DNA from: Acidobacteriota bacterium
GTDB lineage: Bacteria; Acidobacteriota; Vicinamibacteria; Vicinamibacterales; JAKQTR01
Assembly: GCA_026393755.1 (NCBI GenBank)
Contig: JAPKZO010000032.1
Location: forward strand, 151,342-215,341
DNA: 64,000 bases
Reading direction: 5' to 3'
Part shown: positions 15,282 to 58,399 of the stretch, piece after piece
Numbering within the stretch: position 1 is the first letter of the stretch
Layout: each line of letters begins with the position of its first letter
The notes under the pieces: model-generated
Told to the model about the DNA's origin: nothing
Database searches by the model: none
Seen by the model: only the letters and a program-made list of their open reading frames with translations
Program-made: the position numbers and the translations under genes

Positions 15282-15629
15282 TCAGGCGCCGAACGGCTTC
15301 AGGAAGAACAGAATCAGCGAGACCAGCAGCACGTAGATCACGAGAGACTCGATCAGGACGAGGCCCAGGATCAGGTTGCCGCGGATATCGTTGGTCGCCG
15401 CGGGGTTGCGGGCGATCGCCTCGACGGCCGCACTGATGCCCTTACCCTGCGCCAGGGCGCCAACCGCAGCGGCGAACGCCAGTGCAAATCCCGCGGTGAT
15501 GATTGACCAGCGCGCCACCTCAACGGCTCTGGACGGGGTCGCCGCCCCAGCCTCCTGCGCGTAAAGCGGGCTCGCCGCGCCCAACGCGACCACACACAAC
15601 AGCAGAACGAGAGCAAATCGCTTCTTCAC
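15282..15629 (-). CDS. atpE: F-type ATP synthase subunit c with N-terminal signal-like extension
   Basis: The C-terminal 75 aa align to c subunits (AQGKGISAAVEAIARNPAATNDIRGNLILGLVLIESLVIYVLLVSLILFF). The GTG start at 15629 lies 8 nt after GGAGG. Confidence 0.88.
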   Translation of the reverse strand: MKKRFALVLLLCVVALGAASPLYAQEAGAATPSRAVEVARWSIITAGFALAFAAAVGALAQGKGISAAVEAIARNPAATNDIRGNLILGLVLIESLVIYVLLVSLILFFLKPFGA

Positions 15630-15666
15630 AACCACAGCCTCCTCAGTAGCTACCAGGGGTTCGCCT

Positions 15667-16476
15667 TCAGGCCGCCACGCGTTCCGCGTGGTGGGCCGCC
15701 TCGTGTCCATGGGCTTCGTCATGTCCGTGCTCGGCCCCCACCGCGCCCCCAAGGTAGATCATCGTCAGCATGACGAAGATGATGGCCTGGAGCACGGCTG
15801 TGATGATGGCCAGAGGCATCATCAGGAAGGGCACCACAAACGGCGCGATGCTGAACAGAATCAGAATAACCAGTTCCTCGCCGAAGATATTGCCGAAAAG
15901 CCGGAGCGACAGCGACAGCACCCTCGAGAAATGGCTGATGATCTCGATGGGCAGCCAGACGACCGACAGCGACCAGTGTGCGCCTGGCGGCACCGCGAAG
16001 TGCTTGAGGTACGACACGATGCCCTGGGCCCTGATGCCCTGGGCGTGATAGTACACCCAGACCGTCACCGCGCACCCGAGCGTCACGTTGATGCTGCTGG
16101 TCGGCGCCATGAGCCCGGGAATGAGCCCCATCAGGTTGCCGAACAGGACGAAGATCCCGATCGTGCCCACCAGGGTCAGGTACGTGCGGCCTGTCGGCCC
16201 CACCATTTCGTCGAGCATCCCGGCCAGACCACCGACGACGTCTTCGAAGACGATCTGGAGCTTGCCTGGGTTCTCGACGCTCAACCTGGACTTGATGACC
16301 AGGGCCAGAATCGCCACTCCGAGCACGATCAGATACACCATCACGATGTAATTCGGGATGGGCTCGGCGGGATTCTGCGCGTGAAACCCCAGCAGGGCCA
16401 GTAGTCCGTTCACCAATGGCCCAAAGACGGCGTTGGCCGCTTGGACGATCCAGAGAGTGTGTTCGAGTCTTTCCAT
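15667..16476 (-). CDS. atpB: F-type ATP synthase subunit a
   Basis: MERLEHT start. Conserved LSLRLFGNIFGEE (essential Arg) and the usual helix pattern. His-rich C-terminal tail. Confidence 0.9.
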   Translation of the reverse strand: MERLEHTLWIVQAANAVFGPLVNGLLALLGFHAQNPAEPIPNYIVMVYLIVLGVAILALVIKSRLSVENPGKLQIVFEDVVGGLAGMLDEMVGPTGRTYLTLVGTIGIFVLFGNLMGLIPGLMAPTSSINVTLGCAVTVWVYYHAQGIRAQGIVSYLKHFAVPPGAHWSLSVVWLPIEIISHFSRVLSLSLRLFGNIFGEELVILILFSIAPFVVPFLMMPLAIITAVLQAIIFVMLTMIYLGGAVGAEHGHDEAHGHEAAHHAERVAA

Positions 16477-16487
16477 ATAAAGGTTTA

Positions 16488-16516
16488 AGGATATCGCATG
16501 CTTCCGCGCCAGTAAA
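16488..16516 (-). promoter_or_regulatory. candidate sigma70-type promoter immediately upstream of atpB (would give a near-leaderless mRNA)
   Basis: Minus strand reads TTTACT-N17-TATCCT, then 11 nt to the ATG. It is an AT-rich patch with no SD before the ATG. Confidence 0.3.
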
Positions 16517-16602
16517 GCTCGTGCCAGCAATCGGCGGGGCGGCGGCCGGCTGGCACGGGGCCCGCGGTGGCGCTATACTCGAACCACAGAGGTGCACCAC
16601 CC

Positions 16603-17382
16603 ATGACATCCTCGCGCCGGCTGACGTACGGACTCGTCGTCTTGCTCGTGCTCGCGGCTGCCTTGCCCGCGAGCGCTGGCGAAGTGTTGTTCTCGATTCG
16701 AGACGGGCGGGTGACGCTCGTCGCGCACAACGCGCTCATCAGCGACATTCTGGCGGTGTGGGAAAAGGAAGGCCGCACGAAGATCGTGGCACGGGAGCGG
16801 GTGCCTGGCATGGTCACCTCCCTTGAGATCGACAACGAACCTGAGTCGGCCGCACTGGCGACGATCTTGCGCCAGGTCACCGGCTACATCGCGGCCAAAC
16901 GCGAGGTGGCCCCGGCCGATGCCTCCATCTATCGCTGCATCGTCATCAACCCTGTCCCGGCGCCGGTGTTGGCGACGAAGACCGCGCCGAGTGGGCGGGC
17001 GATGGCATCTCCGACGCCATCGATTGGGTACCCACCGCAATCGATGGGCGGAGACTACGGCGCGAACCCGCCGACGTTTGTCCCGGCGACAGACGACGGT
17101 GATTACAGCAGCGGCGGGGCGGGACGGCTGCCGATGGCGCCAGGCATGCGTCCTCCCACATTGGCCTCGCCCGCTGGGAGCATCGGGCAACCGCCGTTCA
17201 ATCCGTACGGGGGAACGATGACGCCGCCAGAGACGCAGCGCCCCACCCAGCCGGCGCTGACGCCCACCTTCCCCGGCCTCGGCACCGGGCTGCCAGGAAC
17301 CGTCGTTCCCGCGCCCCGACCTCCGGGCACGCCGGGGCAGCCGGTGCAGAAACCGCCCGGTTCGCCGGATCGGAAACTCTAG
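16603..17382 (+). CDS. secreted protein with a small N-terminal globular domain and Pro-rich tail
   Basis: Signal peptide MTSSRRLTYGLVVLLVLAAALPASAGE. GC3-rich codons. The C-terminal 150 aa is P/G/T-rich. SD GAGGTG lies 9 nt upstream. Confidence 0.6.
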   Translation: MTSSRRLTYGLVVLLVLAAALPASAGEVLFSIRDGRVTLVAHNALISDILAVWEKEGRTKIVARERVPGMVTSLEIDNEPESAALATILRQVTGYIAAKREVAPADASIYRCIVINPVPAPVLATKTAPSGRAMASPTPSIGYPPQSMGGDYGANPPTFVPATDDGDYSSGGAGRLPMAPGMRPPTLASPAGSIGQPPFNPYGGTMTPPETQRPTQPALTPTFPGLGTGLPGTVVPAPRPPGTPGQPVQKPPGSPDRKL

Positions 17383-18833
17383 AACTGGAAGTAGATGAAC
17401 TTCGATCCTTCGAAGTTCCCGAAGAGCACGATCAGGTAGACGAGCAGCCCGACGACGACCCAGCGCACCGGTCCCGGCCACCGGAACACCACGCCGAGGT
17501 TGTCGGCCTTCCATTCCGCAGCCTGAAGCGCCATCAACGGCGCCGCATATGCGAGCAGCGGCCATCCCAGTTTTGCGAGTACGGCGCCGCTGGGATCGAA
17601 GCCAGTGAAGATCACCCGCGTCATCGAGACGACTTGTGTCACCGAGGACGCACGGAAGATCAGCCATCCGTAGCAGGTGAGGCCGAACATGCCTGCGATA
17701 CCCAGTCCTGTCAGGATCGGGCGCGCTTGGCGCCGCCGCGTTCGTCGTCCGCTTGTTGCCAGCTTGAAGGCCACGAGCAGCACGCCTTGGTAAGCACCCC
17801 ACAGGACGAAGGTCCACGCCGCGCCATGCCAGAGGCCTCCGAGCAGCATCGTGATCATGGTGGCGAACGCGTAGATCCAGACGTCGTCTCGCAGGCCGAA
17901 CCAGTTGACGCCGTCAAGACGCCTGGAAAACGCATAGCTCAAGGGGAGAAACAGGTAGTCGCGCAGCCAGGCGGACAGACTCATGTGCCAGTTGGCCCAG
18001 AATTCCTGGGGCGTCCTGACGAAGTACGGGAAGCGGAAGTTGAGATTGAGCTCGATCCCCATCAGTTTCGACGTGCCGATGGCGATGTCGGAGTATCCCG
18101 AGAAGTCGCCGTAGATCTGAAACGCGAACGCCAGCACCGCGAGCACGACCTCGAGTCCGCCCGGGTTCGCGGACCCGGCAAACGTCGCATTGACGAGCGG
18201 AGCCAGATTGTCGGCCACGAACATCTTCTTGAAGAACCCGTAGAGGATGAGCCACAGGCCCTCCGCCACCTGGGTCGACGTGACGATTCGCGGCTTCGAG
18301 ATCTGGGTCAACAGCAGCGACGCCCGCAGGATGGGACCGGCCACCAGGTGCGGAAAGTACGCGACGAACACGCCAAACTCGACAAAGTCGCGTGCGGGCT
18401 CGATGGTGCGCCGGTACACGTCGATCACGTAACTCATCGTGATGAACGTGTAGAACGAGATCCCGATGGGCAGGAGCACGCGAAGCGTGAAGAAATCCAC
18501 CCGGAACCCGAAGACGCCGACGAGCGCGTGCAGGTTCTCGGCGAAGAAGTTGAAGTACTTGAAGAAGCCCAGCATCGAGAGATTGAAGGCCAGGCTCAGG
18601 ATGAGGGCGGCCTTCCGCTGCCGCGGAACCTGGCGGGCGGCGATATAGCGCCCGCAGAAGAAGTCGACAACCGTCGATGCGAGCAGCAGCCCCAGGAATC
18701 GCCAGTCCCATGACGCGTAGAAGTAGTAGCTCGCGGCCAGCAGCAGCCAGTTCTGTCCGCGGTGCGGCAGGTGCCGGTACAGCGCGTAGACCGCCACGAA
18801 GAAGACGATGAAGTGGACCGAGTTGAAGACCAT
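17379..18833 (-). CDS. MBOAT family O-acyltransferase (AlgI/PatA/DltB-like)
   Basis: MVFNSVHFIVFFVAVYALY..., WNWHMSLSAWLRDYLFLPL and GGLWHGAAWTFVLWG motifs with the conserved His residues. Confidence 0.9.
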   Translation of the reverse strand: MVFNSVHFIVFFVAVYALYRHLPHRGQNWLLLAASYYFYASWDWRFLGLLLASTVVDFFCGRYIAARQVPRQRKAALILSLAFNLSMLGFFKYFNFFAENLHALVGVFGFRVDFFTLRVLLPIGISFYTFITMSYVIDVYRRTIEPARDFVEFGVFVAYFPHLVAGPILRASLLLTQISKPRIVTSTQVAEGLWLILYGFFKKMFVADNLAPLVNATFAGSANPGGLEVVLAVLAFAFQIYGDFSGYSDIAIGTSKLMGIELNLNFRFPYFVRTPQEFWANWHMSLSAWLRDYLFLPLSYAFSRRLDGVNWFGLRDDVWIYAFATMITMLLGGLWHGAAWTFVLWGAYQGVLLVAFKLATSGRRTRRRQARPILTGLGIAGMFGLTCYGWLIFRASSVTQVVSMTRVIFTGFDPSGAVLAKLGWPLLAYAAPLMALQAAEWKADNLGVVFRWPGPVRWVVVGLLVYLIVLFGNFEGSKFIYFQF

Positions 18834-19966
18834 CAGCGCGCGCCCTCGGCTGAAGGAACCAGCCCGGCCGATTCAAGAAAGACCCTGAGCGCTTCCGCGA
18901 TCGCCTCATGGCCGCGCGGCGTGAAGTGTGCGGTGTCCGTGAAGTAGACATCGCCGCCCCGCGACGCCTCACGCAGGGCGGGAAGCGTGTCCAACGTCGG
19001 CAACTTGAGGTCCGACAGCGTCGTCTTGAACCGCTCGGTCGCGCCGTCCCTCAGCAGCGTCTGACCCGCCTCGGCCACGCCTTTCTCCTGATAGCGGAAA
19101 TCATCGTCATCAACCTGGAAGCGCGCCGGAAAGAGGACGAGCGCGGTCTTCGCGTGTTGCGCGGATGCCACCGCGGTCATCCTGGACACGGACTCGCGAA
19201 TCAGGCCAAGTCCTTCGTCGACTTCCGGCGGCGGCTGCTGCAGATAGGCCCTGAGCGGCGGGTACACATCGGGGGTACGGCCGAAGTGGCCGACGAGCGT
19301 CAACACGCGAAGCCGTACGATTTGCAGCACCATGCTCCGCCGCACGAGGCGGCGCGCCCATACGCCAATCGTCTCTGCAGCCGGCGCAACCCCCGATTCG
19401 CTCGCCGGGACTCCGGCCAGTCGATAGGCGGACGCCCGGGCCTGCATCACGTCGTTGCCCGGGTACAGCCCGATCAGCACGACGTCAGGGTCGAAGGCCC
19501 TCGCGACGTAGTTGTAGAAAAGGTACTTCTCCACGGGTCCATAGCCCTGAACGCCTGCGTTGATGACGCGGTAGTGAAGACCCCCACCGGAATGCGTGGC
19601 GTTCAGTCGAGCCTCGAGCAGCTTGCAGAAGGTCTGGCTCGACTCCACCTGTACCGCCATGACGAGCGAATCGCCCAGCACGAGGATGCGGCGCTCATTG
19701 AGCGCCTTCGGCCCGATCTCCGCGTCTCGGACGCCCTGCCCGTTGATGGAAATCGTGGTCTCGTACTCGGAGGTGCGAAATCGCGTCTGCGCGCCCGGCC
19801 GGAGCCGGTGGCCAATGCGTGGATCCGTCATGAAGAGCCGCTGGAATTCGGGCGCGGCCTCGGATCCGCCGGCCAGCCGGAGCGCAATCTCGAACGTCGC
19901 GAATTCGCAGGCCACGATGGCCGCGATGACGAACCATCGTGATTTGAGGACGACTCTGGGGCGCAT
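18833..19966 (-). CDS. membrane-anchored SGNH/GDSL hydrolase-type (acyl)esterase/transferase
   Basis: N-terminal TM (WFVIAAIVACEFATF), block I ILVLGDSLV and block V DTAHFTPRGHEAI. The stop overlaps the MBOAT start (TGATG). Confidence 0.8.
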   Translation of the reverse strand: MRPRVVLKSRWFVIAAIVACEFATFEIALRLAGGSEAAPEFQRLFMTDPRIGHRLRPGAQTRFRTSEYETTISINGQGVRDAEIGPKALNERRILVLGDSLVMAVQVESSQTFCKLLEARLNATHSGGGLHYRVINAGVQGYGPVEKYLFYNYVARAFDPDVVLIGLYPGNDVMQARASAYRLAGVPASESGVAPAAETIGVWARRLVRRSMVLQIVRLRVLTLVGHFGRTPDVYPPLRAYLQQPPPEVDEGLGLIRESVSRMTAVASAQHAKTALVLFPARFQVDDDDFRYQEKGVAEAGQTLLRDGATERFKTTLSDLKLPTLDTLPALREASRGGDVYFTDTAHFTPRGHEAIAEALRVFLESAGLVPSAEGAR

Positions 19967-19985
19967 CAATGGACCGGGCTTAAGG

Positions 19986-20450
19986 TTACCACGATCGTTT
20001 CTGCGGCTGGCGGACGAGCCTGACGGCTTCGATCGCGATGGCAACGACTGGAACGGTCACGCCGACGAACAGCCCAATCGGATCGGCGCGCAGCGGACCG
20101 AGCGCAACAACCGCTACCGCCGCGACGAGGGCGTACCGACTGACGAACCTGACCGTCGCCCGCGTGATTGCGCGCCGCGCGTTCGGCGGCGGCGCACTGT
20201 CCTCTCCGGCCGGAGGGGCCGCCCGCCAGATGCTGGCGTCCACCATCGACCGGACCGCCGCGTACCCGATTGCCATCATCCCGGCGCCGGCCAGCACGCC
20301 GTACGCCAGGCCGGGACGGCCGCGGTCAACGACCAGTGCCCCGAGAATGGCGACAACACAGATCACGGCCGTATCGCGTTTGATGCGGCGCAACGAATCA
20401 TCGCGTTCGCGGTACTTGCCCATGGAGACTGCGTCGGCAGGGACGCTCAC
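19986..20450 (-). CDS. atpI: ATP synthase protein I-like small membrane protein
   Basis: 154 aa with 4 hydrophobic segments. GTGA overlap with the upstream atpZ-like gene. The assignment rests on position and architecture and is moderate only. Confidence 0.55.
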   Translation of the reverse strand: MSVPADAVSMGKYRERDDSLRRIKRDTAVICVVAILGALVVDRGRPGLAYGVLAGAGMMAIGYAAVRSMVDASIWRAAPPAGEDSAPPPNARRAITRATVRFVSRYALVAAVAVVALGPLRADPIGLFVGVTVPVVAIAIEAVRLVRQPQKRSW

Positions 20451-20773
20451 TGCTCGCGCTGCCCATCCTCATCGACCGGTGTCGCTGGCGGCAACTCCGC
20501 CGGCGGCGCCCCGTCTGCGCTGTCCCGAGCCGGCGGCGTCGTGCCGGGAGGAAACGCCTGCGACACGGTACGGAAGACATTGAGAACGCCTGCAGCCAGG
20601 CCCAGGAAGAAACCTAAGATCGTCAGCACTGGTCCCGTGTGCAACCACGCGTCCAGCCTGTTGCCGATCCAGAACCCCATGACCAGCGCAAGCACGAACG
20701 ACAGCCCGACCGTGCTCAGCGCGCCGGCCGAGCGAAGGGCCTCCCGGCTGTTCTTCATCGAACGATTGGTCAT
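20447..20773 (-). CDS. atpZ: AtpZ/AtpQ-type (ATPase gene 1 family) small membrane protein
   Basis: ALRSAGALSTVGLSFVLALVMGFWIGNRLDAWLHTGPVLTILGFFLGLAAGVLNVFR matches the two-TM pattern I recall for this family. Confidence 0.7.
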   Translation of the reverse strand: MTNRSMKNSREALRSAGALSTVGLSFVLALVMGFWIGNRLDAWLHTGPVLTILGFFLGLAAGVLNVFRTVSQAFPPGTTPPARDSADGAPPAELPPATPVDEDGQREQ

Positions 20774-20872: not shown

Positions 20873-22825
20873 TCAGGCGGGTGGCAGGATCACCGGCGGC
20901 AATTCGACGAACACATTGACGAGCGTCGCCACGCCGACCCACGCGACACCCAGACATACGATCCCCGCAGCCAGCCTGAGCGGCAGATGGCGCGAGTCGA
21001 ATCCCCGGGCGATGGCAAGCCCCCCGGCCAGTGCGACAAACGGCTGCATGGCCAGCGTGGCCCGCACCTCAAGCGGCGTGACTATGCCCAGAACCGCAAA
21101 TACGGCGCACACCATCAGCCAGCCCCACATGGCCAGCGTGAGCGCGTCGCGCCGCTTCTCTCGAACGAAGACGAATACGCCCGCCGCGGCAGCCGCCAGC
21201 AACGCGTACGAGTAGCTCCACAACAGGAATCGGAAGAAGGTCGCGACCCGCCCACCCTGCTGTGACACGGTCGGCACCATCGATCGCCGCGAGGTTTCGC
21301 CCGCGAGGATCCGGTGGACGGTCGTCTCGTACACGGTCTGGAAATGCTGGTAGTAGAGGAGGTACGACGCGACGATCGCGAGCCCCAGCGCGAAGGCAAA
21401 CCAGCCGCGCGCCGCCTTCACGTCACGCCCGGTGCCGAACGACCAGGCGGCAACGACGCCCGCCGCCAGTACCGGGCCGAGGAGCGCCGTGCCGAAGTGG
21501 GACATGAAGCCACCTGCCAGCAGGAGCGACACCACGGTCGACCAGAGCCAGGCTGGGCGGGATCCGACCAGGCACACCCCGAACAGCACCGCCGCCGAGA
21601 CGACACTCTGCGCGAATGCGTTGCTCAGATTGCCCGTCGCCATCGTCTGGACGCCAACCGGAGCCAGCATATAGAAGAGCGCGGCGGCGCAGGCCGCACT
21701 CGGGAGACGCCAGATCCGCAGACCCGCAAACAGAATCGCCAGGGCCGCGATCGCATCCGCGACAAGCCCGATGCCCCTCAGCAGTCCGACGTGATTGGCA
21801 ATCGCTTTCCAGAACGGCACGGCCAGCACGAACATCCCGGGCGCGTACGGGAATTCGAAGTACGGGGGTGGCGTCACCGATGTAAAGAAGAAGTTGCCGG
21901 CAGCCACGTAGTCGGCGCGGTGCGCCTGGAACATGCTGTCGCCGATCGGCGCGTTGGGGTGCAGGAACAGGACGAGCCGCAAGAGGGTGATGACGACGAT
22001 CAAGAAGACGGTCGTCGGTACGAGGCGTGTCCGAGCGTGCCGCCTGGCGGCAGACCGTGCGCCGATCACCGCGCCGGCAACGAGCGCCCACACGGCCAGC
22101 GGCGCGAACGCGTCCGAGAAGTCACACAGGAACGCCGCATCGCGCACGAGCAGCCACGCGTGCCAGCCCGTGGTGGCTACGGCCGCCCCCACAATCACCG
22201 GCCACGAGCATCCCGCGACCGCCGCGCCTGCGCCGTAGAATGCCGCGGCCGCGACCGACTGCCCGAGTGCTCTTGTCGGCAGCGGGAACCGGCCCGTCTC
22301 GGGCGCGAGCGCGAACGCCTCGACGATGAACCCGAGTGTCCGCTTGTCCTGGGGTCCGGGCACGAACGTTCGTGCCGCCGTCATCGTGACCGAGGCGGTG
22401 TCGCGCGTGGCCGGCGGAATCTCGACCGCGATCGCCATTCGATGATCGAGCAGGTCGAAGGGGATGGGACGCCTGGCGCCGTCGACCAGCAGTTCAACTG
22501 GCAGCGGGGCCGACGGTCCGCCTCTCGCCACGATCGTCAGCCGATAGCCGACGTGGCGATCCAGCCGCCGCACGCTGACGACCGCGGACCTTCGTGTCCA
22601 CGCGAACGCCGGCACGCTCTCGGGGTACTCCACGGGGTAGAATCCGCCGGTCTTGAACCAAGCCGGCGAGGTCGAGAGCCAGTCGTTGCCTTCCGAGACC
22701 GATCGCACCAGCTCCCGTGGACCGGCGGCATACCACCAGGCCGTTGGCACGGCCAGTCCAATCAGGGCCGAGAGCGCCGTAGCTCCCACGACGCGTACAA
22801 GCCAGCCCCGCATGCTTCGCCTCAT
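20873..22825 (-). CDS. large polytopic membrane protein, paralogue of 4302-6284 (GT-C-like)
   Basis: Shared blocks: GFYPVEY..FAWTRR / GFYPPEH..FVWTMRR; VPGPQDKRTLGF / VPGQSDPRALGV; FQAHRADYVAAGNFFFT / FHAHRFEWVLAGRFYFT; GNLSNAFAQSV / ANLTNAFGQSV; YYQHFQTVYETT / YWGHFGSVYRTQ. The start is uncertain: ATG at 22825 or 22813, GTG at 22900. Confidence 0.7.
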   Translation of the reverse strand: MRRSMRGWLVRVVGATALSALIGLAVPTAWWYAAGPRELVRSVSEGNDWLSTSPAWFKTGGFYPVEYPESVPAFAWTRRSAVVSVRRLDRHVGYRLTIVARGGPSAPLPVELLVDGARRPIPFDLLDHRMAIAVEIPPATRDTASVTMTAARTFVPGPQDKRTLGFIVEAFALAPETGRFPLPTRALGQSVAAAAFYGAGAAVAGCSWPVIVGAAVATTGWHAWLLVRDAAFLCDFSDAFAPLAVWALVAGAVIGARSAARRHARTRLVPTTVFLIVVITLLRLVLFLHPNAPIGDSMFQAHRADYVAAGNFFFTSVTPPPYFEFPYAPGMFVLAVPFWKAIANHVGLLRGIGLVADAIAALAILFAGLRIWRLPSAACAAALFYMLAPVGVQTMATGNLSNAFAQSVVSAAVLFGVCLVGSRPAWLWSTVVSLLLAGGFMSHFGTALLGPVLAAGVVAAWSFGTGRDVKAARGWFAFALGLAIVASYLLYYQHFQTVYETTVHRILAGETSRRSMVPTVSQQGGRVATFFRFLLWSYSYALLAAAAAGVFVFVREKRRDALTLAMWGWLMVCAVFAVLGIVTPLEVRATLAMQPFVALAGGLAIARGFDSRHLPLRLAAGIVCLGVAWVGVATLVNVFVELPPVILPPA

Positions 22826-22914
22826 CTGTGATTCCGGAGACTTGCGCGCTGAGTGCGCGTCGATTCCGGGCCGACGTCCCCCCCGGGCGGGCCGACGCAC
22901 GGTCGTGAATCGCC

Positions 22915-24390
22915 CTAGAACGACGTCGCCGTGGCGGCGACCACGCCGAGCGTCCTGGCCGACGCCTCGGCCAGCTCAAAGAGCGGCCGCGGGTAGACTC
23001 CCAGGATGATCGTGGCGGCCAGCGCCACCACCAGCACCGCCGCGAGCGCGGGGGCCGGTCTCGGATCAGAGCCGGTGGGATCGCCCTTCATGAACATGAA
23101 CACGACGATACGAAGGTAGTAGTAGAGCGAGATGGCGCTGTTGAGGACGCCGATGACGGCGAGCCAGTAGTACTGCGCGTCGATGGCCGCGCTGAACAGC
23201 CAGAACTTGCCCATGAACCCGGCGGTCGGCGGAATGCCCCCCAGCGACAGCATGAAGATCAGCATGGCCAGGGCGCCGAACGGCTGCCGCGCAAACAGGC
23301 CGCTCAGATCCTTGAGTTCGTCGCCGATGGCGTCGGCTCGGCGCATCATGATGACGACGGCGAAGGCGCCGATCTGCATGAAGGCGTAGACCGCCAGGTA
23401 GATCATCATCGCCGTGACGCCGCGCGGCGTACCGGCGACGACGCCGATCAACAGGTACCCGGCGTGCGCGATCGACGAGTACGCCAGCATGCGCTTGATG
23501 TTGGTCTGCGTCAGCGCGGCGACGTTGCCCACTGTCATCGTGACGATCGCCATGGCGTAGAACAGCATCTTCCAGTCGTCGGCCATCGATGGGACGCCTT
23601 CGAAGAAGATCCTGAGCAGCATGGCGAACGAGGCCGCCTTTGATCCGACCGAGAGGAAGGCGGTAATCGGCGTCGGCGCGCCCTCGTACACGTCCGGCGC
23701 CCACATATGGAACGGCACCGCCGCGATCTTGAAACCCATGCCGGCGACCACGAGGATGACCGCCAGGACGAGCCACGGATCGCGGCCGTGCTCGGCGATC
23801 TTGATGGCGAGCACGTGCAGGTTGGTGGTGCCAGACATCCCGTACAGCAGGGACATCCCGTACAGCAGCAGTCCAAGCGAGAACGTGCCCAGGAGGAAGT
23901 ACTTGACCGCCGCTTCGTTCGACAGGCGGTTGGACTTGAGCATCCCGGCCAGGATGTAGAACGCGATCGCCATCGTCTCGAGGCCGATGAAGAGCGTGAT
24001 CAGGTCCGTGCCGCCTGCCATGAACATCATGCCGATCGTCGCGCACAGCACCATGAACACGTACTCGCCGTGCCGGGTCCCCTCGATGTCGAGGTACCGC
24101 ACCGACATCAGCAGCGTCAGCGCCGCCGAGAGCAGGAAGATCGCCTTGAAGAACGTGCCGAACGCGTCGACGGCGACCACGCCGTGGGCGAGGCTCACAG
24201 GCGGCCCGCCGGCCACCGACGCGAGCGTGATCCCGGACGCCGCCAGCGCCGCGATGCCGAGCCACGACATGATCCGCTGATGCGGCCGCGGAATGAACGT
24301 GTTCACCACGAGCAGCACGAGCGTGGCGCCGGTGAGCACCAGCTCCGGCAGCAGGTAGTAGAGATCCGAGGTCGAGAACCAGGCTGGCAT
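22915..24390 (-). CDS. nuoN: NADH-quinone oxidoreductase subunit N
   Basis: Contains EAAVKYFLLGTFSLGLLLYG and KIAAVPFHMWAPDVYEGAPTPITAF. The start overlaps the nuoM stop (TGATG). Confidence 0.92.
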   Translation of the reverse strand: MPAWFSTSDLYYLLPELVLTGATLVLLVVNTFIPRPHQRIMSWLGIAALAASGITLASVAGGPPVSLAHGVVAVDAFGTFFKAIFLLSAALTLLMSVRYLDIEGTRHGEYVFMVLCATIGMMFMAGGTDLITLFIGLETMAIAFYILAGMLKSNRLSNEAAVKYFLLGTFSLGLLLYGMSLLYGMSGTTNLHVLAIKIAEHGRDPWLVLAVILVVAGMGFKIAAVPFHMWAPDVYEGAPTPITAFLSVGSKAASFAMLLRIFFEGVPSMADDWKMLFYAMAIVTMTVGNVAALTQTNIKRMLAYSSIAHAGYLLIGVVAGTPRGVTAMMIYLAVYAFMQIGAFAVVIMMRRADAIGDELKDLSGLFARQPFGALAMLIFMLSLGGIPPTAGFMGKFWLFSAAIDAQYYWLAVIGVLNSAISLYYYLRIVVFMFMKGDPTGSDPRPAPALAAVLVVALAATIILGVYPRPLFELAEASARTLGVVAATATSF

Positions 24391-26147
24391 CAGTCGCGCC
24401 CTCCTGTCGGGCTCCCCTCGGGGCCCGGCCCCGGTTTCTTCGTTGCCCCCTTCGACTCGGACCCTTTCGCAGACTCGTTCAGGGCCGGGACTGAAGCCTT
24501 GGGCTCGCTCGGGGCCGGTTTGGCGGCCGTCCCGGCGGCGGCATCGCACGGCGCCATCGACACAAACGGGTTGGCGGGCTTGGCGGCCGGTGTCTCGCCG
24601 CAGTCATTCGGCTTCGCCGCCGCCTTCGCCACCGCGGGTGCCGCATACGCCGAGTTCAGCCTTGCGATGACGGTCTTGACCGTCGGGTCAATCTTCTCGA
24701 GGAACGGCGTCGGATAGATGCCAATCCACACGGCCAGAATGATGAGCGGCGCGAAGGTCATGAACTCGCGGAAATTCAGGTCCAGCAGTTTCTCGTTCTT
24801 CGGATTCTCGATCTTGCCGAACATCGTCCGCTGATACAGCCACAGCATGTACGCCGCGCCCAGCACAACGCCGCTTCCCGCCAGCGTCGCCCAGAGCATG
24901 CCGTGTCCGGGCACCATGAAGACCCCCGCCAGGATCAGGAACTCGCCGATGAACCCGTTCAGCGTCGGCAACCCGATCGACGACATCGTCATGATCATGA
25001 AGATCGCGGCGTAGATGGGCATCACCTTCGACAGCCCGCCGTACTCGGAGATCTGGCGCGTGTGCCGCCGTTCGTAGACGACGCCGACGAGCAGGAAAAG
25101 GGCGCCGGTCGAAATGCCGTGGTTAAGCTGCTGGATAATGCTGCCGGCCATGCCGACCGGATTGAGCGCGAACATGCCCAGCGTCACCATGCCCATGTGG
25201 CTGACGCTGGAGTACGCGACCAGCCGCTTCCAGTCCTTCTGCGCCATCGCCACCAGCCCACCATAGATGATGCCGATGATCGAAAGCGTCACCATCATCG
25301 GCACGAACGTGCGGGATGCGTCGGGCAGGATCGGCAGGCTGAACCGGATGAAGCCGTACGTGCCCATCTTCAGGAGGATGGCCGCCAGAATCACGGACCC
25401 GGCCGTTGGCGCGTCGGTGTGCGCATCAGGCAACCAGGTGTGGAACGGGAACATCGGGACCTTGATGGAGAACCCGAGGAAGAATGCCAGGAACAGCCAC
25501 CACTGCAGGCCGGTGGGAATGTTCGCCGCTTGATACTTCGTGATGTCGAACGACCAGACCTGCGTCACTTCGTGATAGTGGAAGTAGAGCGCCAGAATGC
25601 CGAGCAGCATGACCACGCTGCCGACCAGCGTGTACAGGAAGAACTTGATCGCCGAGTAGAGCCGCCGATCGCTGCCCCAGATGCCGATCAGGAAGTACAT
25701 CGGCACCAGCATCACTTCCCAGAACAGGAAGAACAGCAGGAAGTCCAGCGAGATGAAGGCGCCAATCATCCCGCTCTGGAGGACGAGCAGGAAGATGTAG
25801 TACTCCTTGACCCGCTCGGTGATGGCCGTCCACGACGACAGGATGGCGATGACGCCCATCAGTGTCGTCAGCAGGATCAGCAGCACGCTGAACCCGTCCA
25901 CGCCCAGGAAGTACTCCGCCCCGATCGACGGAATCCAGGGGCACCGCTCGACGAACTGGAACTGCGCGCCAGCCGGGTTGTACGCGAACCACAGCGGCAG
26001 CGACACCACGAACCCGATGAACGCGACGATGTTCGCGATCCACCGGATGAGGTTCGTCTGCTGCCGGCTCACGAACAACAGCAGCACAGCCCCGAGAAGC
26101 GGGGTGAACAGAATGATCGAGAGAAGATGGGAGTTGGCGTCGTTCAC
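24390..26147 (-). CDS. nuoM: NADH-quinone oxidoreductase subunit M with ~87-aa low-complexity C-terminal tail
   Basis: Contains FHTWLPDAHTDAPTAGSVILAAILLKMGTYGFIRF. GTG start at 26147. Confidence 0.92.
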   Translation of the reverse strand: MNDANSHLLSIILFTPLLGAVLLLFVSRQQTNLIRWIANIVAFIGFVVSLPLWFAYNPAGAQFQFVERCPWIPSIGAEYFLGVDGFSVLLILLTTLMGVIAILSSWTAITERVKEYYIFLLVLQSGMIGAFISLDFLLFFLFWEVMLVPMYFLIGIWGSDRRLYSAIKFFLYTLVGSVVMLLGILALYFHYHEVTQVWSFDITKYQAANIPTGLQWWLFLAFFLGFSIKVPMFPFHTWLPDAHTDAPTAGSVILAAILLKMGTYGFIRFSLPILPDASRTFVPMMVTLSIIGIIYGGLVAMAQKDWKRLVAYSSVSHMGMVTLGMFALNPVGMAGSIIQQLNHGISTGALFLLVGVVYERRHTRQISEYGGLSKVMPIYAAIFMIMTMSSIGLPTLNGFIGEFLILAGVFMVPGHGMLWATLAGSGVVLGAAYMLWLYQRTMFGKIENPKNEKLLDLNFREFMTFAPLIILAVWIGIYPTPFLEKIDPTVKTVIARLNSAYAAPAVAKAAAKPNDCGETPAAKPANPFVSMAPCDAAAGTAAKPAPSEPKASVPALNESAKGSESKGATKKPGPGPEGSPTGGRD

Positions 26148-26189
26148 TGCTGCCGTCCTGGATTAAGGGTCACCCGAATCAACATCCGC

Positions 26190-28577
26190 CTACCGCGACA
26201 TCAGGTAGATGCTCACAAATGCAAACACGCCGAACAACATGACGAGCGCGTAGTTCTGAATCAGCCCGGTCTGGAGGCGGCGGAACACGAAGCTCCCCTC
26301 TTCCAGCACGGCCCCGACGAAGTTCACCAGACCATCGACGACGTACTGATCGATGACGTGCGAGAACCGCGACCACAACATGGTCATCCAGCCCGTGCCG
26401 TTGACGGCACCGTCGACCACCTGCGCGTCGAACACCCACAAGCCACGGGCCGACGCCATTGTGCCGGCAATCGCCGTGGCGGCGTAGAACTCGTCCACGT
26501 AGTACTTGTTGGAGAGCACGCGATGAGCGCCCGCCCACCGTTGGGCCAGCCGGTCGGCAATCTCGGGCGCCCGCACGTAGAAGCGATACGCGACCATGAT
26601 GCCGATGACGCCCATCAGAACCGAGACCGCCATCAGGCCCATCTCGCCCCACCACGAGATGTGCGGCTCGCCTTCACCCTCGACTGCTGCAGCATGTGCA
26701 GCGGTAGCCGCTTCACCATGCGATTCGACCGTGGATGCAGGTGCGCCCTTCGATCCGCCTTCGCCCCCTTCGGGGGCCGCGGCGTGACTGGCCGTTCCGG
26801 CCAGCTCCGCGGTGGTTGCGGGCTTGCTCAGGGTTCTCGCTTCGTTCGTGGCGGATGCCGTCGCGTGTTCCGCCCCGACCGCCTGGGCCACGAAACTCGG
26901 CTCGAGGAAGTGCTCGATGTCGTTGTTGCCGTTGAGCGCCGCCGGCACGCCCACGAAGCCCGCGAGGAGCGCGCCCACCGCCAGGATCATGAGCGGAATG
27001 GTCATCGACTTCGGCGACTCGTGCGGCCCGTGCCATCCGCCTTCGCCGTGTCCACCAGTGCCGTGACCGGCTACGGCGTGACCGTGGGTTCCACCGCCGC
27101 CGTGGCTGTCGTCAGCGGCGTGGCCCGCCCCATGGCCGGCTGACGCCACCGGGCCGTGGCCCGTGGTGGTGCGTCCATGGCCGCCCGCTTCCTCGAACGC
27201 CGGGCCGCGGTACGTCCCGAAGAACGTCATCGACATCAGGCGATACATGTAGAACGCCGTCATCAGGGCCGTGACCACCGCGACGCCCCAGATGATTCTG
27301 TTGCTCTGGTACGCCCGGAACAGGATCTCGTCCTTGCTGAAGAACCCGGAGAGCGGCGGGATGCCCGCGATCGCCAGCGTGCCGATGAGCATCGTCACGT
27401 ACGTCACCGGGAGGTACTTCTTCAGCCCGCCCATGTGCCGCATGTCCTGCTGGCCGGCCATTGCGTGGATGACCGATCCCGAACAGAGGAAGAGCAGCGC
27501 CTTGAAGAACGCGTGCGTCATCAGGTGGAACGCGCCGGCCGCGTACGCCCCGACGCCCATGGCCAGGAACATGAAGCCGAGCTGCGACACGGTCGAATAC
27601 GCGAGCACCCGCTTGATGTCGTTCTGGACGAGGCCGATGGTCGCCGCCATGAACGCGGTGGCCACGCCGATAATCGCCACGATCTGCATCGTTTCCGGCG
27701 AATGCGAGAAGAGCACGGCGTTGCGGCCCACCATATACACGCCGGCCGTGACCATCGTCGCCGCGTGGATCAGGGCGGAGACCGGCGTCGGGCCTTCCAT
27801 CGCGTCGGGCAACCAGACGTACAGCGGAATCTGGGCCGACTTGCCGGTGGCCCCGATAAACAGGAGCAGCGTGATGAGCGACAGCGTGCCAAACCCGGCG
27901 CTCTCGACGGGCATCGACCCGGCCGCATTCGCCACGGCGCGGAAATCCAGCGTGCCGAACACCGAGAAGATGAGGAATATCCCGAGGATGAAGCCCCAGT
28001 CTCCGATGCGGTTGACGATAAAGGCTTTCTTACCGGCGTCAGATGCGCTCTTCTTCTCGTAGTAATAGCCGATCAAGAGGTACGAACAGAGCCCCACGCC
28101 CTCCCACCCGACGAACATCACGACGAAGTTGTCGCCGAGCACGAGCATCAGCATGAAGAACACGAAGAGGTTGAGGTATGTGAAGAAGCGCGCGTAGGCG
28201 CCTCTCGACTCTCCGTGCATGTAGCCGACCGAATAGACGTGGATCAGGAACCCGATCCCGGTGACCACGAGGATCATCATCGCGGAGAGCGGGTCGAGCC
28301 GGAATCCCCAGGGAATGCTGAAGCTGCCGATCGTGCCGTCTCGCAGCTGCAGGGGCAGCGCGGAGATCCAGGTCAGCGGGCGCACGACGTACTCGCGCGC
28401 CTCGGGCCCGAGCGTGAGCAATTCGAAGAAGGCGTAGAACGACAGTGCCAGCGCGCCGGCCATCGTCGCACACGCCAGCAGGCCCGCCGCGCGCTTGCTG
28501 AAGTAGCGCACGCCGACGACGCCATTGACGAGGGCGCCAAACGCGGGCAACAGAGGAATCAGCCAGATCAGGTGCAT
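26190..28577 (-). CDS. nuoL: NADH-quinone oxidoreductase subunit L (795 aa, unusually long)
   Basis: MHLIWLIPLLPAFGALVNG start 5 nt after the nuoK stop. Canonical antiporter-like core (WLPDAMEGPTPVSALIHAATMVTAGVY), an HESP motif and a C-terminal lateral-helix region. Confidence 0.92.
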   Translation of the reverse strand: MHLIWLIPLLPAFGALVNGVVGVRYFSKRAAGLLACATMAGALALSFYAFFELLTLGPEAREYVVRPLTWISALPLQLRDGTIGSFSIPWGFRLDPLSAMMILVVTGIGFLIHVYSVGYMHGESRGAYARFFTYLNLFVFFMLMLVLGDNFVVMFVGWEGVGLCSYLLIGYYYEKKSASDAGKKAFIVNRIGDWGFILGIFLIFSVFGTLDFRAVANAAGSMPVESAGFGTLSLITLLLFIGATGKSAQIPLYVWLPDAMEGPTPVSALIHAATMVTAGVYMVGRNAVLFSHSPETMQIVAIIGVATAFMAATIGLVQNDIKRVLAYSTVSQLGFMFLAMGVGAYAAGAFHLMTHAFFKALLFLCSGSVIHAMAGQQDMRHMGGLKKYLPVTYVTMLIGTLAIAGIPPLSGFFSKDEILFRAYQSNRIIWGVAVVTALMTAFYMYRLMSMTFFGTYRGPAFEEAGGHGRTTTGHGPVASAGHGAGHAADDSHGGGGTHGHAVAGHGTGGHGEGGWHGPHESPKSMTIPLMILAVGALLAGFVGVPAALNGNNDIEHFLEPSFVAQAVGAEHATASATNEARTLSKPATTAELAGTASHAAAPEGGEGGSKGAPASTVESHGEAATAAHAAAVEGEGEPHISWWGEMGLMAVSVLMGVIGIMVAYRFYVRAPEIADRLAQRWAGAHRVLSNKYYVDEFYAATAIAGTMASARGLWVFDAQVVDGAVNGTGWMTMLWSRFSHVIDQYVVDGLVNFVGAVLEEGSFVFRRLQTGLIQNYALVMLFGVFAFVSIYLMSR

Positions 28578-28582
28578 ACCAC

Positions 28583-28885
28583 TCACCACCGCATCAGGTT
28601 CATCTCGTCGATGTTGATGGTTTCCTTGTTGCGGTAGAACGCGAGGATGATGCCCAGGCCCACCGCGGCCTCGGCCGCCGCCACGCAGATGACGAACACG
28701 GCGAAGACCTGCCCGGTCACGTCTCCAAGTTGCCGCGAGAATGCGATCAGGTTGATGTTCACCGCATTGAGCATCAACTCCATCGACATGAGAATGATGA
28801 TGATGTTGCGGCGCGTCATCACGCCGACGACGCCGAGCATGAAGAGCGCCGCCGAGAGCACCAGGTAATGTGTCTGCGTAACCAT
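28583..28885 (-). CDS. nuoK: NADH-quinone oxidoreductase subunit K
   Basis: 100 aa: [48 protein letters not shown]. It is the last part of the long 28583-30337 ORF. SD AGAGGA. Confidence 0.92.
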
Positions 28886-28893
28886 CTGATCCT

Positions 28894-29394
28894 CTACTGC
28901 TGCCGCTTGGCCAGCACGATGGCGCCAATCATCGCCACCAGCAACAGCACCGACGCCACCTCGAACGGCACCAGGTAGTCGGTGTACAGGGCGCGGCCAA
29001 CCTGCTCGATGTTCTTGGCGTCCAGCGTTCCCCCGAAGCCCGACGGCTTGAGCCATCCATAGGCGCCAATCGCCATGAGTTCCGCGAACACGGCCAGCGC
29101 CATCACCAGGCCCAGCCGGCCGAGCCGGCGCGGATCGACGTGCAGCTCGGGCGGGCGCTTCAGGTTCACCAGCATCACCACGAACAGGTACAGGACGACG
29201 ATGCCGCCGGCGTAGACCATCACCTGGATGACGGCCAGGAACGGAGCCTCCAGCACCACGTACAGCGCCGCGACGCACAGGAAATCGGCCACCAGAAACA
29301 GCACGCTGTGCACGGTGCTCTTCGCCGTGATGACGAGCACGGCGAATCCGAGTATCAGCGCGGCGAAGATGTAGAACACAACGGCTTCGGCCAT
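28894..29394 (-). CDS. nuoJ: NADH-quinone oxidoreductase subunit J
   Basis: Contains [24 protein letters not shown]. 166 aa. Confidence 0.9.
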
Positions 29395-29412
29395 AGTTCT
29401 CCGCGAGGGGCG

Positions 29413-30441
29413 CTATCGGTTCAGCAGCACCTTCAAGAAGCCGGTCACCACCACGTTCAGGATGGCCAGCGGAATCAGCCACTTCCAGCCCAGTCGCATC
29501 AGCTGGTCGTACCGGTAGCGCGGGTACGTCGCGCGCACCCACAGGAAGACGTACAGGAAGAGGAACGTCTTCAAGCAGAACCAGATCCAGCCCGGCACGA
29601 TCCCGAGCCACCACAGCCACGACACGTTCGGGAACGGCTGCAGCCAGCCGCCGAAAAACAGCGTCGTCGCCACCGCCGACACCACGATCATGTTCGCGTA
29701 TTCGGCCAGGAAGAAGAACGCGAACCGCATCCCGGAATACTCGGTGTGGAAGCCGGCCACCAGTTCCTGCTCGGCTTCCGGCAGGTCGAACGGCGCGCGG
29801 TTGGTCTCGGCCAGCCCGCCGACACAGTAGATGAAGAACGCGACCGGCTGCATGAACGCGAACCACATCCCCGCCTTCGCCTGCGCGGCCACAATCCCCA
29901 CCATACTCAGGGTGCCCGCCAGCATGATGACCGTGACCAGCGTCATCGTCACCGCGATCTCGTAGCTGATGAGCTGGGCGGACGCCCGCAGGCTGGCAAT
30001 CAGCGGATACTTGCTGTTCGACGACCAGCCGCCGAGGATGATGCCGTAGATCCCGAGCGAGGCCACCGAGACGATGTAGAGCATGCCGACGTTCACGTCG
30101 GCGATGCGGCCAGAAATCGGCAGCCCGAACAGCTTCATCTCGTTCGACGCGAACGGGATGACGGCAAACGCGATGAGCGCCGGCACCAGCACCATGATCG
30201 GCGCCGCCGTGAACACCCACTTGTCGGCCATCACCGGCGTGATGTCTTCCTTGACGAACAGCTTCAGCACATCGGCCAGCGGCTGCAGGATGCCGTGCGG
30301 CCCTACGCGCATCGGGCCGAGCCGCACCTGCACCCACGCCTGCACCTTGCGCTCGAGTAGGACGATGTACATCACCGTCGCCAGCACCGCCGCCAGGACG
30401 ATGACAATCTTGATGAGCGGGAAAACGACGGCTTCAGTCAT
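29413..30441 (-). CDS. nuoH: NADH-quinone oxidoreductase subunit H
   Basis: Contains [40 protein letters not shown] and [23 protein letters not shown]. Confidence 0.93.
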
Positions 30442-30454
30442 GGGTCGTGATTAC

Positions 30455-31594
30455 CTACCGATCCACCTCGCCAAGCACGATGTCGATGGTGCCAATAAGC
30501 GCCACGACATCGGCAATCAGGTGGCCCCTCACCAGCTGCCGGAGCGCCTGCAGATTGCAGAACGACGGCGGCCTGACCCGGAACCGGTACGGGCTGACCG
30601 ACTTGCCGTCGCTCACGATGAAGTACCCGAGCTCGCCCTTCGGCGCTTCGATCGCGTGATAGGTCTCGCCCGCCGGGGGCTTGATCAGGCGCGGCACCTT
30701 GCCCATCACCGGCCCCTCGGGAAGCCCCTCGACCGCCTGGCGGATGATCCGCAACGACTGGCGGAACTCCTCGAGGCGGACCAGGTAGCGATCATACGTG
30801 TCGCCCTTGACCCCGATGGGAATGTCGAAATCCATCTCCGCGTAGGCGGCGTACGGCTCGTCCTTCCGGACGTCGCGCACCACACCCGACGCGCGCAGGG
30901 GCGGACCGCACATCCCGATGGCAATCGCGTCGGCCGCCGAAATGACGCCGACGTTGATGGTGCGCTCCATCCAGATCCGGTTGCTCGTCAGCAACTGCTC
31001 GTACTCGGGCAGCTTCTGCTCCTGGATCTCGCAGAACCGCAGCACCTTCTTGTCCCAGCCCTCCGGCACGTCGGCCGGCTGGCCGCCGATGCGCATGCAG
31101 TTGTACGTCAGCCGCGCGCCGCAGTACTCCTCGAACAGGTCGAGCACCAGTTCGCGTTCCCGCAATCCGTAGAGCAGCACGGTCAGCGCGCCGATGTCGG
31201 CGGCGTGCGTGCCCAGCCAGAGCAGATGGCTCGCGACGCGCTGAAGCTCGGAAAGGATCGTGCGGATGTACTTCGCCCGGCGCGGCACCTCGAGCGACAT
31301 CAACTTCTCAACCGTCTCGACGTAGCCAAGGTTGTTGGTCGCCGCCGCGCAGTAATCCATCCGGTCCGTAATCAGGACAATCTGCGTCCAGTCCCGGTTC
31401 TCGCAGAGCTTCTCGACGCCGCGGTGCAGGTAGCCGATGACGGCGTCACAATCGACGACCTTCTCGCCGTCGAGCTTCAGCACAAGCCGCAGCACGCCAT
31501 GCGTGCTGGGGTGCTGGGGCCCCATATTGATGACCAGTTCGTCGGTGTCGAACATCGGGCGGGCGGGTTCTCGCTGCATGGTCACGGTGCTCAC
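30455..31594 (-). CDS. nuoD: NADH-quinone oxidoreductase subunit D
   Basis: Contains [35 protein letters not shown] and the C-terminal [31 protein letters not shown] overlap with the nuoC stop. Confidence 0.93.
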
Positions 31595-32172
31595 TCGATG
31601 TCGGCCTCAACCGCCGTCTGCCTTGCCTTCAACCAGTCCTGCGGGTTCTCCATCAGGAGCTCACCAGGTCCCTCTAGCGGGTAGTCCTTGCGCTGCGGAT
31701 GCCCCTGCCAGTCGAGCGGCATCAGAATCCGCCGGAGATCCGGATGCCCGGTAAACGGCACGCCGAACATGTCGTACACCTCGCGCTCCAGCCAGTTCGC
31801 GGCGGGCCACAGACCGGTCACCGACGGCACGGATTCGCCATCCGCCAGGTGCACCTTGACGCGCAGCCGATGCCGCAGCCCGATCGAGTAGAAGCTCAGG
31901 ATCAGATCAAACCTCTTGCCGGGCCGGGCCGGCCAATCGCTCGCCGTCAGATCGGACAGGTAGTTGAACTCGCACTCGGGCGCATCGCGCAGGAAGGCCG
32001 CCACGTCCAGCAGCCGGTCGGCAGCCACGACGACCGACCAATCGCCGACCCAGAAACTCACCTGTTCGACCGCACCCGGCAGGCCGGCCTGTAGAGCCGC
32101 GATGAAGGGCGGCATCGCCATCTCGGCTGGCGGCGCCTGATCGGGCGGCATCTTTACAATTTCTTCGGACAT
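31591..32172 (-). CDS. nuoC: NADH-quinone oxidoreductase subunit C
   Basis: Contains [37 protein letters not shown] at 32172 preceded by GGAGAG. Confidence 0.9.
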
Positions 32173-32185
32173 TACCGCTCTCCGA

Positions 32186-32566
32186 CTACGCCCATTCCAA
32201 GGCGCCCTCACGCCAGGCATAAACATACCCGACCACGAGGATGAACAGAAACACCATCATCTCGATGAATCCAAACCACAACAGCGAATCCATGATGACG
32301 GCATAGGGATAGAGGAACACCGTCTCCACGTCGAAGATCAGGAACAGCATGGCCACCATGAAGTACCGCACGCTGTAGCGGTCACGCGCGTCGGTCTTCG
32401 GCTCGATCCCGCACTCGTACGGATCGAGCTTGACCTTGCCCGCCCGGTGCGGCGCAACGAGTCGGGCCACCAGCAGGGTGCCCACCCCAAACGCAATCGC
32501 GACCAGGATGTAGATGAGAATCGGAATCCACGCGTTGACCATCGACGTATCACCCGGGAGGGACAA
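32186..32566 (-). CDS. nuoA: NADH-quinone oxidoreductase subunit A
   Basis: Contains YECGIEPKTDARDRYSVRYFMVAMLFLIFDVETVFLYP. The start may instead be the ATG at 32542 (MVNAW); the listed start is TTG. Confidence 0.9.
   Translation of the reverse strand: MSLPGDTSMVNAWIPILIYILVAIAFGVGTLLVARLVAPHRAGKVKLDPYECGIEPKTDARDRYSVRYFMVAMLFLIFDVETVFLYPYAVIMDSLLWFGFIEMMVFLFILVVGYVYAWREGALEWA

Positions 32567-56709: not shown

Positions 56710-56726
<17 letters not shown>
55389..56726 (-). CDS. pyrC: dihydroorotase
   Basis: Contains [35 protein letters not shown]. Confidence 0.92.
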
Positions 56727-58382
<1,656 letters not shown>

Positions 58383-58399
58383 TCACGATGTGCCTCTTT

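Follow-up and report, generated by a model that had tools for sequence, protein, structure and literature searches.

The nuo operon and the architecture of NuoL

The window analysed here is a stretch of 64,000 nt with 65% G+C from a member of the order Vicinamibacterales (Acidobacteriota). From 22915 to 32566 its minus strand carries nine genes for complex I in the order nuoA-C-D-H-J-K-L-M-N. The subject of this report is the NuoL subunit encoded there, in which a 26-residue module of the C-terminal lateral helix (HL) occurs twice in tandem. The nearest loci in the species-level genome collection were found in metagenome-assembled genomes (MAGs) of Vicinamibacterales and Acidobacteriota, with NuoL identities of 63-88%.

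The genes were assigned with Pfam and phmmer (Table 1). The nuoL gene lies between nuoK and nuoM, as is expected for the NuoL family, and its product matched PF00361 (Proton_antipo_M) with 301.7 bits and PF00662 (Proton_antipo_N) with 73.4 bits. The best relatives in the PDB were the cyanobacterial NdhF1, the Paracoccus NuoL and the Thermus Nqo12, with E-values of 1e-135 to 1e-109 (2e-135 against NdhF1 and 7e-133 against the Paracoccus NuoL). The extension formed by transmembrane helix (TM) 15, HL and TM16 is present at the C-terminus of the protein, as seen from the alignment to NdhF1 and NuoL and from the helices of an AlphaFold2 (AF2) model at 642-669, 671-768 (with short breaks) and 772-794.

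Two long low-complexity inserts were also observed in NuoL. One is His/Gly-rich (~27024-27203, residues 459-518) and lies between the last TMs of the core; the other is Ala/Glu/Thr-rich (~26658-26894, residues 562-640) and precedes TM15. Both are predicted to be disordered, with a predicted local distance difference test score (pLDDT) of <50. Several MAG assemblies of the homologous loci (L014, L024-L026) have frameshifts and N-runs at the His/Gly run.

Table 1. Genes of the nuo operon and segments of the NuoL C-terminus, in window coordinates
Feature	Coordinates	Strand	Description and evidence
nuoA	32186-32566	-	Pfam
nuoC	31591-32226	-	Pfam
nuoD	30455-31594	-	Pfam
nuoH	29413-30441	-	Pfam
nuoJ	28894-29394	-	Pfam
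nuoK	28583-28897	-	Pfam
nuoL	26190-28577	-	795 aa, coordinates include the stop, start MHLIW at 28577; 14-TM antiporter core, TM15, HL, TM16
TM15 (M646-V668)	26574-26642	-	HL departs from it; AF2 helix 642-669; aligns with the equivalent TM of NdhF1/NuoL/Nqo12
HL, first part (~P671-V715)	26433-26567	-	contains the KYYVDE motif, anchor for HL length; AF2 helical, amphipathic at its start
HL unit 1 (V720-Y745)	26343-26420	-	VVDGAVNGTGWMTMLWSRFSHVIDQY; extra 26-residue module; matches positions 1-22 of the canonical-unit model
HL unit 2 (V746-G771)	26265-26342	-	VVDGLVNFVGAVLEEGSFVFRRLQTG; equivalent of the single canonical unit, ends in RxLQTG before TM16; model positions 2-30
TM16 (L772-R795)	26193-26264	-	C-terminal anchor of HL, motif QNYA....G; AF2 helix 772-794
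nuoM	24390-26147	-	585 aa, core of ~490 aa and low-complexity tail; Pfam PF00361, phmmer
nuoN	22915-24390	-	Pfam PF00361, phmmer

The six reading frames of the 64-kb window contained only three antiporter-like open reading frames (ORFs), nuoL, nuoM and nuoN, and a second nuoM was found neither in the operon nor elsewhere in the window. The phmmer classification thus bears out the count of one nuoM given in a first-pass annotation of this DNA. Since nuoL, nuoM and nuoN abut, there is no space for a fourth antiporter-like gene among them. The genes nuoB, nuoI and nuoEFG were not found anywhere in the 64-kb window. Because the operon genes are adjacent or overlapping, there is also no room for nuoB between nuoA and nuoC or for nuoI between nuoH and nuoJ.

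A tandem copy of the 26-residue unit in the lateral helix

The C-terminus of NuoL reads FDAQ-VVDGAVNGTGWMTMLWSRFSHVIDQY-VVDGLVNFVGAVLEEGSFVFRRLQTG-LIQNYA. The first-pass annotation had quoted this peptide, located it at 26265-26420 and interpreted it as a tandem duplication of 26 residues in the lateral helix. The peptide and the coordinates are exact, with the two 26-residue units filling the interval, and the duplication was confirmed by a hidden Markov model (HMM) of the canonical unit, which matched twice. The HMM was built from 76 short-form NuoLs, which have a single 30-residue unit, consisting of the 26-residue unit and the four preceding xDxx residues. On the window NuoL it matched residues 716-737 with 26.4 bits and residues 743-771 with 20.6 bits. 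Two matches, 26-27 residues apart and of 20-26 bits each, were obtained in the window protein and in five other long forms, and a single match in short forms. Since V(I/V)DG through LQTG spans 26 residues in the canonical unit, the long form amounts to exactly two units. When the single unit of the M. smegmatis NuoL (8e9g_L) was compared, it aligned to either copy, best to unit 2. Every long form had unit 1, whereas none of the 78 short-form NuoLs had it.

The two 30-residue units of the window NuoL are 30% identical in an ungapped alignment, and the identities are concentrated in xDxxVVDGxVNxxG. The pair had a z-score of 4.0 against 20,000 shuffles, seven of which reached the observed score, and it was the top 30-mer pair in the whole protein (score 19, next 8). 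The DNA of the copies is identical at 31/78 positions (40%), indicating an old event and not a recent or assembly-derived one; a DNA-level repeat or assembly artefact is excluded by the same figure. We conclude that one HL module, xDxx-VVDGxVNxxG with ~13 helical residues after it, underwent an ancient tandem duplication.

The spacing between the VNG and RxLQTG motifs had been given as 16-18 residues in canonical NuoLs and as 41 here. Both values were a little too high, the actual spacings being 12 and 38 residues; the difference of 26 was right. In the AF2 model, helices were predicted at 702-726, at 730-768 and, for TM16, at 772-794. The insert is modelled as helical and as continuous over 730-768 into unit 2, with no hairpin.

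Length of the lateral helix in other NuoL proteins

HL length was taken as the stretch between the KYYVDE anchor and the QTG motif that precedes TM16. Its distribution over 144 NuoLs was bimodal, with sharply separated classes: the helix had 56-58 residues in 78 proteins and 81-82 residues in 52, including the window protein with 81. One protein had 85 residues, and 13 proteins, all from Terriglobales, had 91-92. The NuoL and NdhF proteins in the PDB have a single HL unit. An alignment to canonical NuoLs had been named as the check that could overturn the duplication, and it showed that these proteins, the solved structures among them, carry the single unit; the duplication thus withstood the check.

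In a broader, arbitrary cross-bacterial sample, the matches listed had 56-58 residues in Alphaproteobacteria, Geobacterales, Nitrospirota, Ignavibacteria and others; 81-82 or 91 residues occurred among them only in Acidobacteriota or unclassified MAGs. A representative-sequence search returned many diverse long forms, and the cluster members added only names from Holophagae and Acidobacteria. A neighbour-joining (NJ) tree of the NuoL core, computed without support values, gave no one clean long-HL clade.

The helices of 91-92 residues were found in Terriglobales/Korobacteraceae NuoLs (L090, L093, L096, L097, L100, L102-L105, L109-L111 and L118). They have the 26-residue duplication, ~9 additional residues in the preceding segment and an altered second unit (IIDGxGVNGPAILARxLSYPxRLxQWG).

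Conservation of the additional unit

Conservation was analysed in 85 full-length homologues with 68-88% identity to the window NuoL. The 56 residues of the two-unit region were free of indels in 85/85 homologues. Column identity was 0.77 in the unit 1 region (residues 716-745, which include the four preceding residues), 0.80 in unit 2, 0.80 in the first part of HL and 0.85 in TM16; it was 0.48 in the His/Gly-rich insert and 0.24 in the Ala-rich insert. With no indels and a column identity like that of the rest of HL, the additional unit is under purifying selection as strong as that on the remaining helix in this lineage.

The unit 1 positions D..VVDG.VNG.GW.T......S...D are conserved across classes, and the HL length of 81-82 residues between the anchors is kept in other classes as well. 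The TM16 motif QNYA....G was unchanged across the short, the long and the two-NuoM (2M) forms described below, which suggests that the docking surface is of one kind in all of them.

Relation to complex I with two NuoM subunits

Complex I of the 2M type has two NuoM subunits together with an elongated NuoL (PMC6606698). In Nitrospira, the 2M NuoL has an insertion of 26 residues in its amphipathic helix, considered to let this helix reach across four pumps (PMC9040806). The first-pass annotation had referred to such an insertion of about this size, and the literature as well as two operons among our loci agree with it. These operons, L127 and L156, come from Deltaproteobacteria/Thermodesulfobacteriota MAGs and have the order B-C-D-H-I-J-K-L-M-M-N. 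In L127, the three PF00361 genes after nuoL were confirmed with Pfam. The distance from the end of nuoL to the end of nuoN was 4.6 kb in L127 and L156, compared with a median of 3.1 kb in related loci. Their NuoL has an HL of 81 residues with two units (SFDLGVIDGIVNSAAWITRFISWVSHKFDIYVVDGLVNS...RRMQTG).

The mean identity of the 30-residue units was 0.49 between unit 1 and unit 1 across lineages and 0.24 between unit 1 and unit 2. Read directly, unit 1 of the window shares 12/26 residues with unit 1 of L127 and 8/26 with its own unit 2. Because unit 1 resembles unit 1 of other lineages more closely than unit 2, the insert is homologous between operons with one and with two nuoM genes, and the similarity at the level of the units favours one origin of the insert. 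We regard the duplication and its homology to the 2M-type insert, taken jointly, as very probable.

In an NJ tree of NuoM, the proteins of long-HL operons and both NuoMs of the 2M operons grouped together, apart from the NuoMs of short-HL operons. The first and the second NuoM of the 2M operons and the window NuoM are ~52-57% identical to one another. As the three are about equally alike, a loss of nuoM fits as well as a gain.

The window NuoL therefore resembles that of the known 2M complexes (Chadwick et al. 2018; e.g. Nitrospira, Acidobacterium capsulatum ACP_2565-2576, Anaerolinea) in having a 26-residue HL insertion at the same position, which in the 2M operons L127 and L156 is a duplicated VVDGxVN unit homologous to that of the window. 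Many 2M operons are also without nuoEFG, as is the window operon. The lengthened HL is shared, but the window has no second nuoM and hence no L-M-M-N order, and the A. capsulatum 2M operon contains nuoB and nuoI, whereas the window operon contains neither.

Long-helix operons with a single nuoM in the Acidobacteriota

Among the matches listed, ~70 long-HL operons had a single nuoM and 2 had two. The single-nuoM operons occurred in Terriglobia, Bryobacterales, the Solibacter and Korobacter groups, Holophaga, Pyrinomonadaceae, Thermoanaerobaculia and a Binatia MAG. Every Vicinamibacterales long-HL locus had the same nine genes, the gene order of the window recurred in all related long-HL loci, and all acidobacterial long-HL operons were without nuoB, nuoI and nuoEFG. 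The long-HL operon with one nuoM is thus phylum-wide in the Acidobacteriota and not particular to the genome of the window.

Apparent pairs of nuoM genes in L004, L038, L090, L099, L101, L149, L157 and L173 were rejected as overlapping or split ORFs of one gene. These loci are mostly on contigs of MFD-series MAGs, and their spacing from nuoL to nuoN was near the length for one nuoM wherever it was measured. Locus L152 of an Ignavibacteriaceae MAG has a 2M-like spacing. The gene between its nuoM and nuoN (L152:13619-15049) encodes a CitMHS_2 transporter (Pfam 474.8 bits) and not an antiporter-like protein; it lies inside an otherwise canonical short-HL operon.

Subunits encoded elsewhere in the genome

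Without nuoB, nuoI and nuoEFG, the operon cannot yield a working enzyme alone, and at least the Fe-S subunits must come from elsewhere. The nuoB and nuoI genes that stand alongside the core in a complete 14- or 11-subunit operon are absent here. The long-HL operon usually coexists with a canonical short-HL operon. In the MAG MFD05942.bin.1.97, the long-HL operon (L003) and an operon with the order A-B-C-D-E-F-H-J-K-L(short)-M-N (L167) are found on different contigs; the L167 operon itself seems to be without nuoG and nuoI. In many Terriglobia, a long-HL and a short-HL operon stand tail to tail (…L M N / N M L…; L063, L080, L082, L084, L085, L088, L089, L107, L134, L240, L243 and L251), and in L159 the two are in tandem.

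A solitary nuoB with unrelated neighbours was found in Terriglobia/Acidobacteriaceae (L179, L194, L203, L224 and ~30 other loci). These loci may supply the B subunit that is absent from the nine-gene operon. In a few other phyla, a nuoB-nuoI pair was observed. A profile scan with the NuoMs of the long-HL clade gave no extra matches in the relevant MAGs, among the matches listed.

What the additional unit may be used for

Ever since the first structures of complex I, it has been disputed whether the NuoL lateral helix is a coupling rod or a passive strap or ruler. For three antiporter-like subunits the helix is reportedly ~110 Å long, as Efremov and Sazanov are said to have described in 2011. 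Counted from the end of TM15, the ~75 residues of the canonical HL would correspond to three stretches of ~26 residues and to three subunits. As an alpha-helix, the 26 extra residues would add ~39 Å, that is, a fourth stretch. HL connects the seventh transmembrane helices of successive antiporter-like subunits on the cytoplasmic face and is anchored by TM16 (PMC7419157). It could be pictured as a strap along the row of antiporter-like subunits, pinned by TM16, with a length that matches their number. If the strap matches the row, one more module would mean room for one more antiporter-like subunit.

The enzyme may accordingly carry four antiporter-like modules in the order L-M-X-N, X being a second copy of NuoM or a paralogue from elsewhere, and we give this arrangement an even chance. 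It is suggested by the homology of the insert to that of four-pump operons, by the constant length and by the unchanged TM16 motif. A partner from elsewhere is plausible because the operon already depends on genes at other places and a related MAG has a second L/M/N operon. With a fourth module, each cycle would move one additional proton, or reverse electron flow would be driven more strongly, as has been proposed for the 2M complex. Several observations weigh against a fourth module. The nuoM gene is single wherever the segment from nuoL to nuoN is complete, in at least five acidobacterial classes and in Binatia, and a copy of an essential fourth subunit would be expected in the operon more often. 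The 64-kb window has no antiporter-like gene outside nuoL, nuoM and nuoN, and none was found up to 10 kb from the solitary nuoB loci. The NuoM of the second operon, which falls into a separate group in the tree, is distant from the NuoM of the long-HL operon, so it may not fit the long-HL complex. In addition, the AF2 model of NuoL, with a mean pLDDT of 72, has a predicted HL with a pLDDT of only ~50, a low value that a strap modelled in isolation from its partners would be expected to give.

Alternatively, the enzyme could have three modules (L-M-N), and the extra HL module could carry TM16 ~39 Å past NuoN to NuoK/J/A, or to NuoH, and so clamp the membrane arm, or it could bind a partner other than an antiporter-like subunit, or lipid. 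We know of no precedent for this, and consider it a serious possibility that falls short of an even chance. It agrees with the single nuoM of essentially all long-HL acidobacterial operons and with the window having no extra antiporter-like gene, and insert-bearing NuoLs are described in complexes of Manganitrophaceae with a single NuoM (PMC9040806). The conservation of the insert shows that it is used, not which use it has. Three modules are harder to reconcile with the homology of the insert to its counterpart in true L-M-M-N operons, which have one additional subunit to match, and with its length of exactly one canonical module, which shows no lineage-specific drift; the TM16 motif shared with the short forms argues against re-docking on a different subunit. 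HL might also act as a molecular ruler, with the product of the single nuoM filling two adjacent positions (L-M-M-N), which would give 5 H+/2e- from three genes. The state with a long HL and one nuoM would then be an intermediate, and the 2M operons would have arisen by a later duplication of nuoM. We hold this to be unlikely. In a variant of the ruler, the fourth module would be borrowed from the second nuo operon of the genome, as NuoB and NuoI must be.

That the long helix is a relic of an L-M-M-N ancestor which lost one nuoM, leaving functionless slack that is tolerated, is compatible with the grouping of the 2M NuoMs with the single NuoMs of long-HL operons, as an old duplication of nuoM followed by loss would produce it. 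Slack should drift, however, and neither the indel-free alignment of the homologues nor the HL length kept across classes points to drift; the insert matches the rest of HL in conservation and lies far above the two disordered inserts, and the unit 1 positions are kept across classes. We therefore regard a relic as quite improbable. There remains the possibility that no duplication took place and that the VVDGxVN motifs arose by chance or convergence in an unrelated insertion. The C-terminal halves of the units are indeed dissimilar and the DNA identity is low, but the HMM matched both copies independently in six long forms, the upstream xDxx is repeated too, the insert has the length of the canonical unit and the single M. 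smegmatis unit aligns to either copy, which makes this explanation hardly credible. A fourth antiporter-like module remains the reading that we put forward, at the even chance given above.

Other genes in the window

At its C-terminus (24390-~24680), NuoM extends past the 14-TM core by an Ala-, Pro- and Lys-rich tail of ~95 residues. A 675-residue multi-pass membrane protein is encoded at 20873-22900 on the minus strand and begins 12 nt past nuoN. It was rejected as an extra subunit of complex I, since it had no Pfam match and was never found beside nuoN in relatives. Further downstream on the minus strand, the region 15282-20773 contains an atpI-like gene (20447-20773), atpB (15667-16530) and atpE (15282-15752). 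Between the atpI-like gene and atpB lie genes for an MBOAT acyltransferase (17379-18833) and an unknown protein of 403 residues (18833-20044). A pyrimidine biosynthesis cluster at 55389-62785 encodes a dihydroorotase-like protein, aspartate carbamoyltransferase, a pyrR-like phosphoribosyltransferase, dihydroorotate dehydrogenase and OMP decarboxylase.

Comparison with known systems and significance

The canonical NuoL, Nqo12, ND5 and NdhF proteins (PDB 3rko, 4hea, 8qby, 8e9g and 6hum) have in common with the window NuoL the 14-TM core, the order TM15-HL-TM16, the KYYVDE motif and the motif xDxxV(I/V)DGxVNG...RxLQTG. They differ from it in having one unit (HL of 56-58 residues) instead of two (81 residues), and the window NuoL has the two long disordered inserts in addition. 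Similar to the situation in the window are Complex_I_1 and Complex_I_2 of 'Ca. Manganitrophaceae' (Yu et al. 2022, PMC9040806), for which an HL insertion in NuoL and no second NuoM are described. These organisms belong to another phylum, the Nitrospirota, and the likeness to the window is that of the published description.

A number of antiporter-like modules other than three is also known from the rhizobial 'green' complex I, where NuoL is replaced by two MrpD-like subunits, and from MrpA. In Mrp, a helix of the HL type braces the row of antiporter-like subunits (PMC7419157; PMC9040806). The green complex and Mrp differ from the window, as their subunit number was changed by replacing or splitting NuoL and not by duplicating an HL module. 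Two of our loci, L284 (Inquilinaceae MAG) and L292 (Ensifer adhaerens SD006), have two L-like genes followed by M, N, A, C and D, which is the layout of the green complex.

The 26-residue extension of HL and its link to a fourth pump have been published, as has the insert without a second NuoM in Manganitrophaceae (PMC9040806). What may be new is that the insert repeats the canonical 26-residue unit of HL in tandem, that it is homologous between operons with one and with two nuoM genes, and that the long-HL, single-nuoM operon without nuoB and nuoI is a phylum-wide acidobacterial trait. For the acidobacterial case, no paper was found in the literature searched; Chadwick et al. 2018 (ISME J 12:2668) stood outside the comparison.

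For the annotation of genomes, our results mean that an insertion in NuoL alone should not imply a 2M complex, and that the products of an acidobacterial nuoACDHJKLMN operon cannot form complex I on their own. A long helix together with three antiporter-like genes offers a clean natural test of the role of HL. If the enzyme has three modules, the helix would be re-usable for another contact, and the rule that a 26-residue insertion means a 2M complex would be unsafe. If it has four, the length of the helix would dictate the number of subunits, and a very abundant soil phylum would have an H+/e- stoichiometry above the assumed value.

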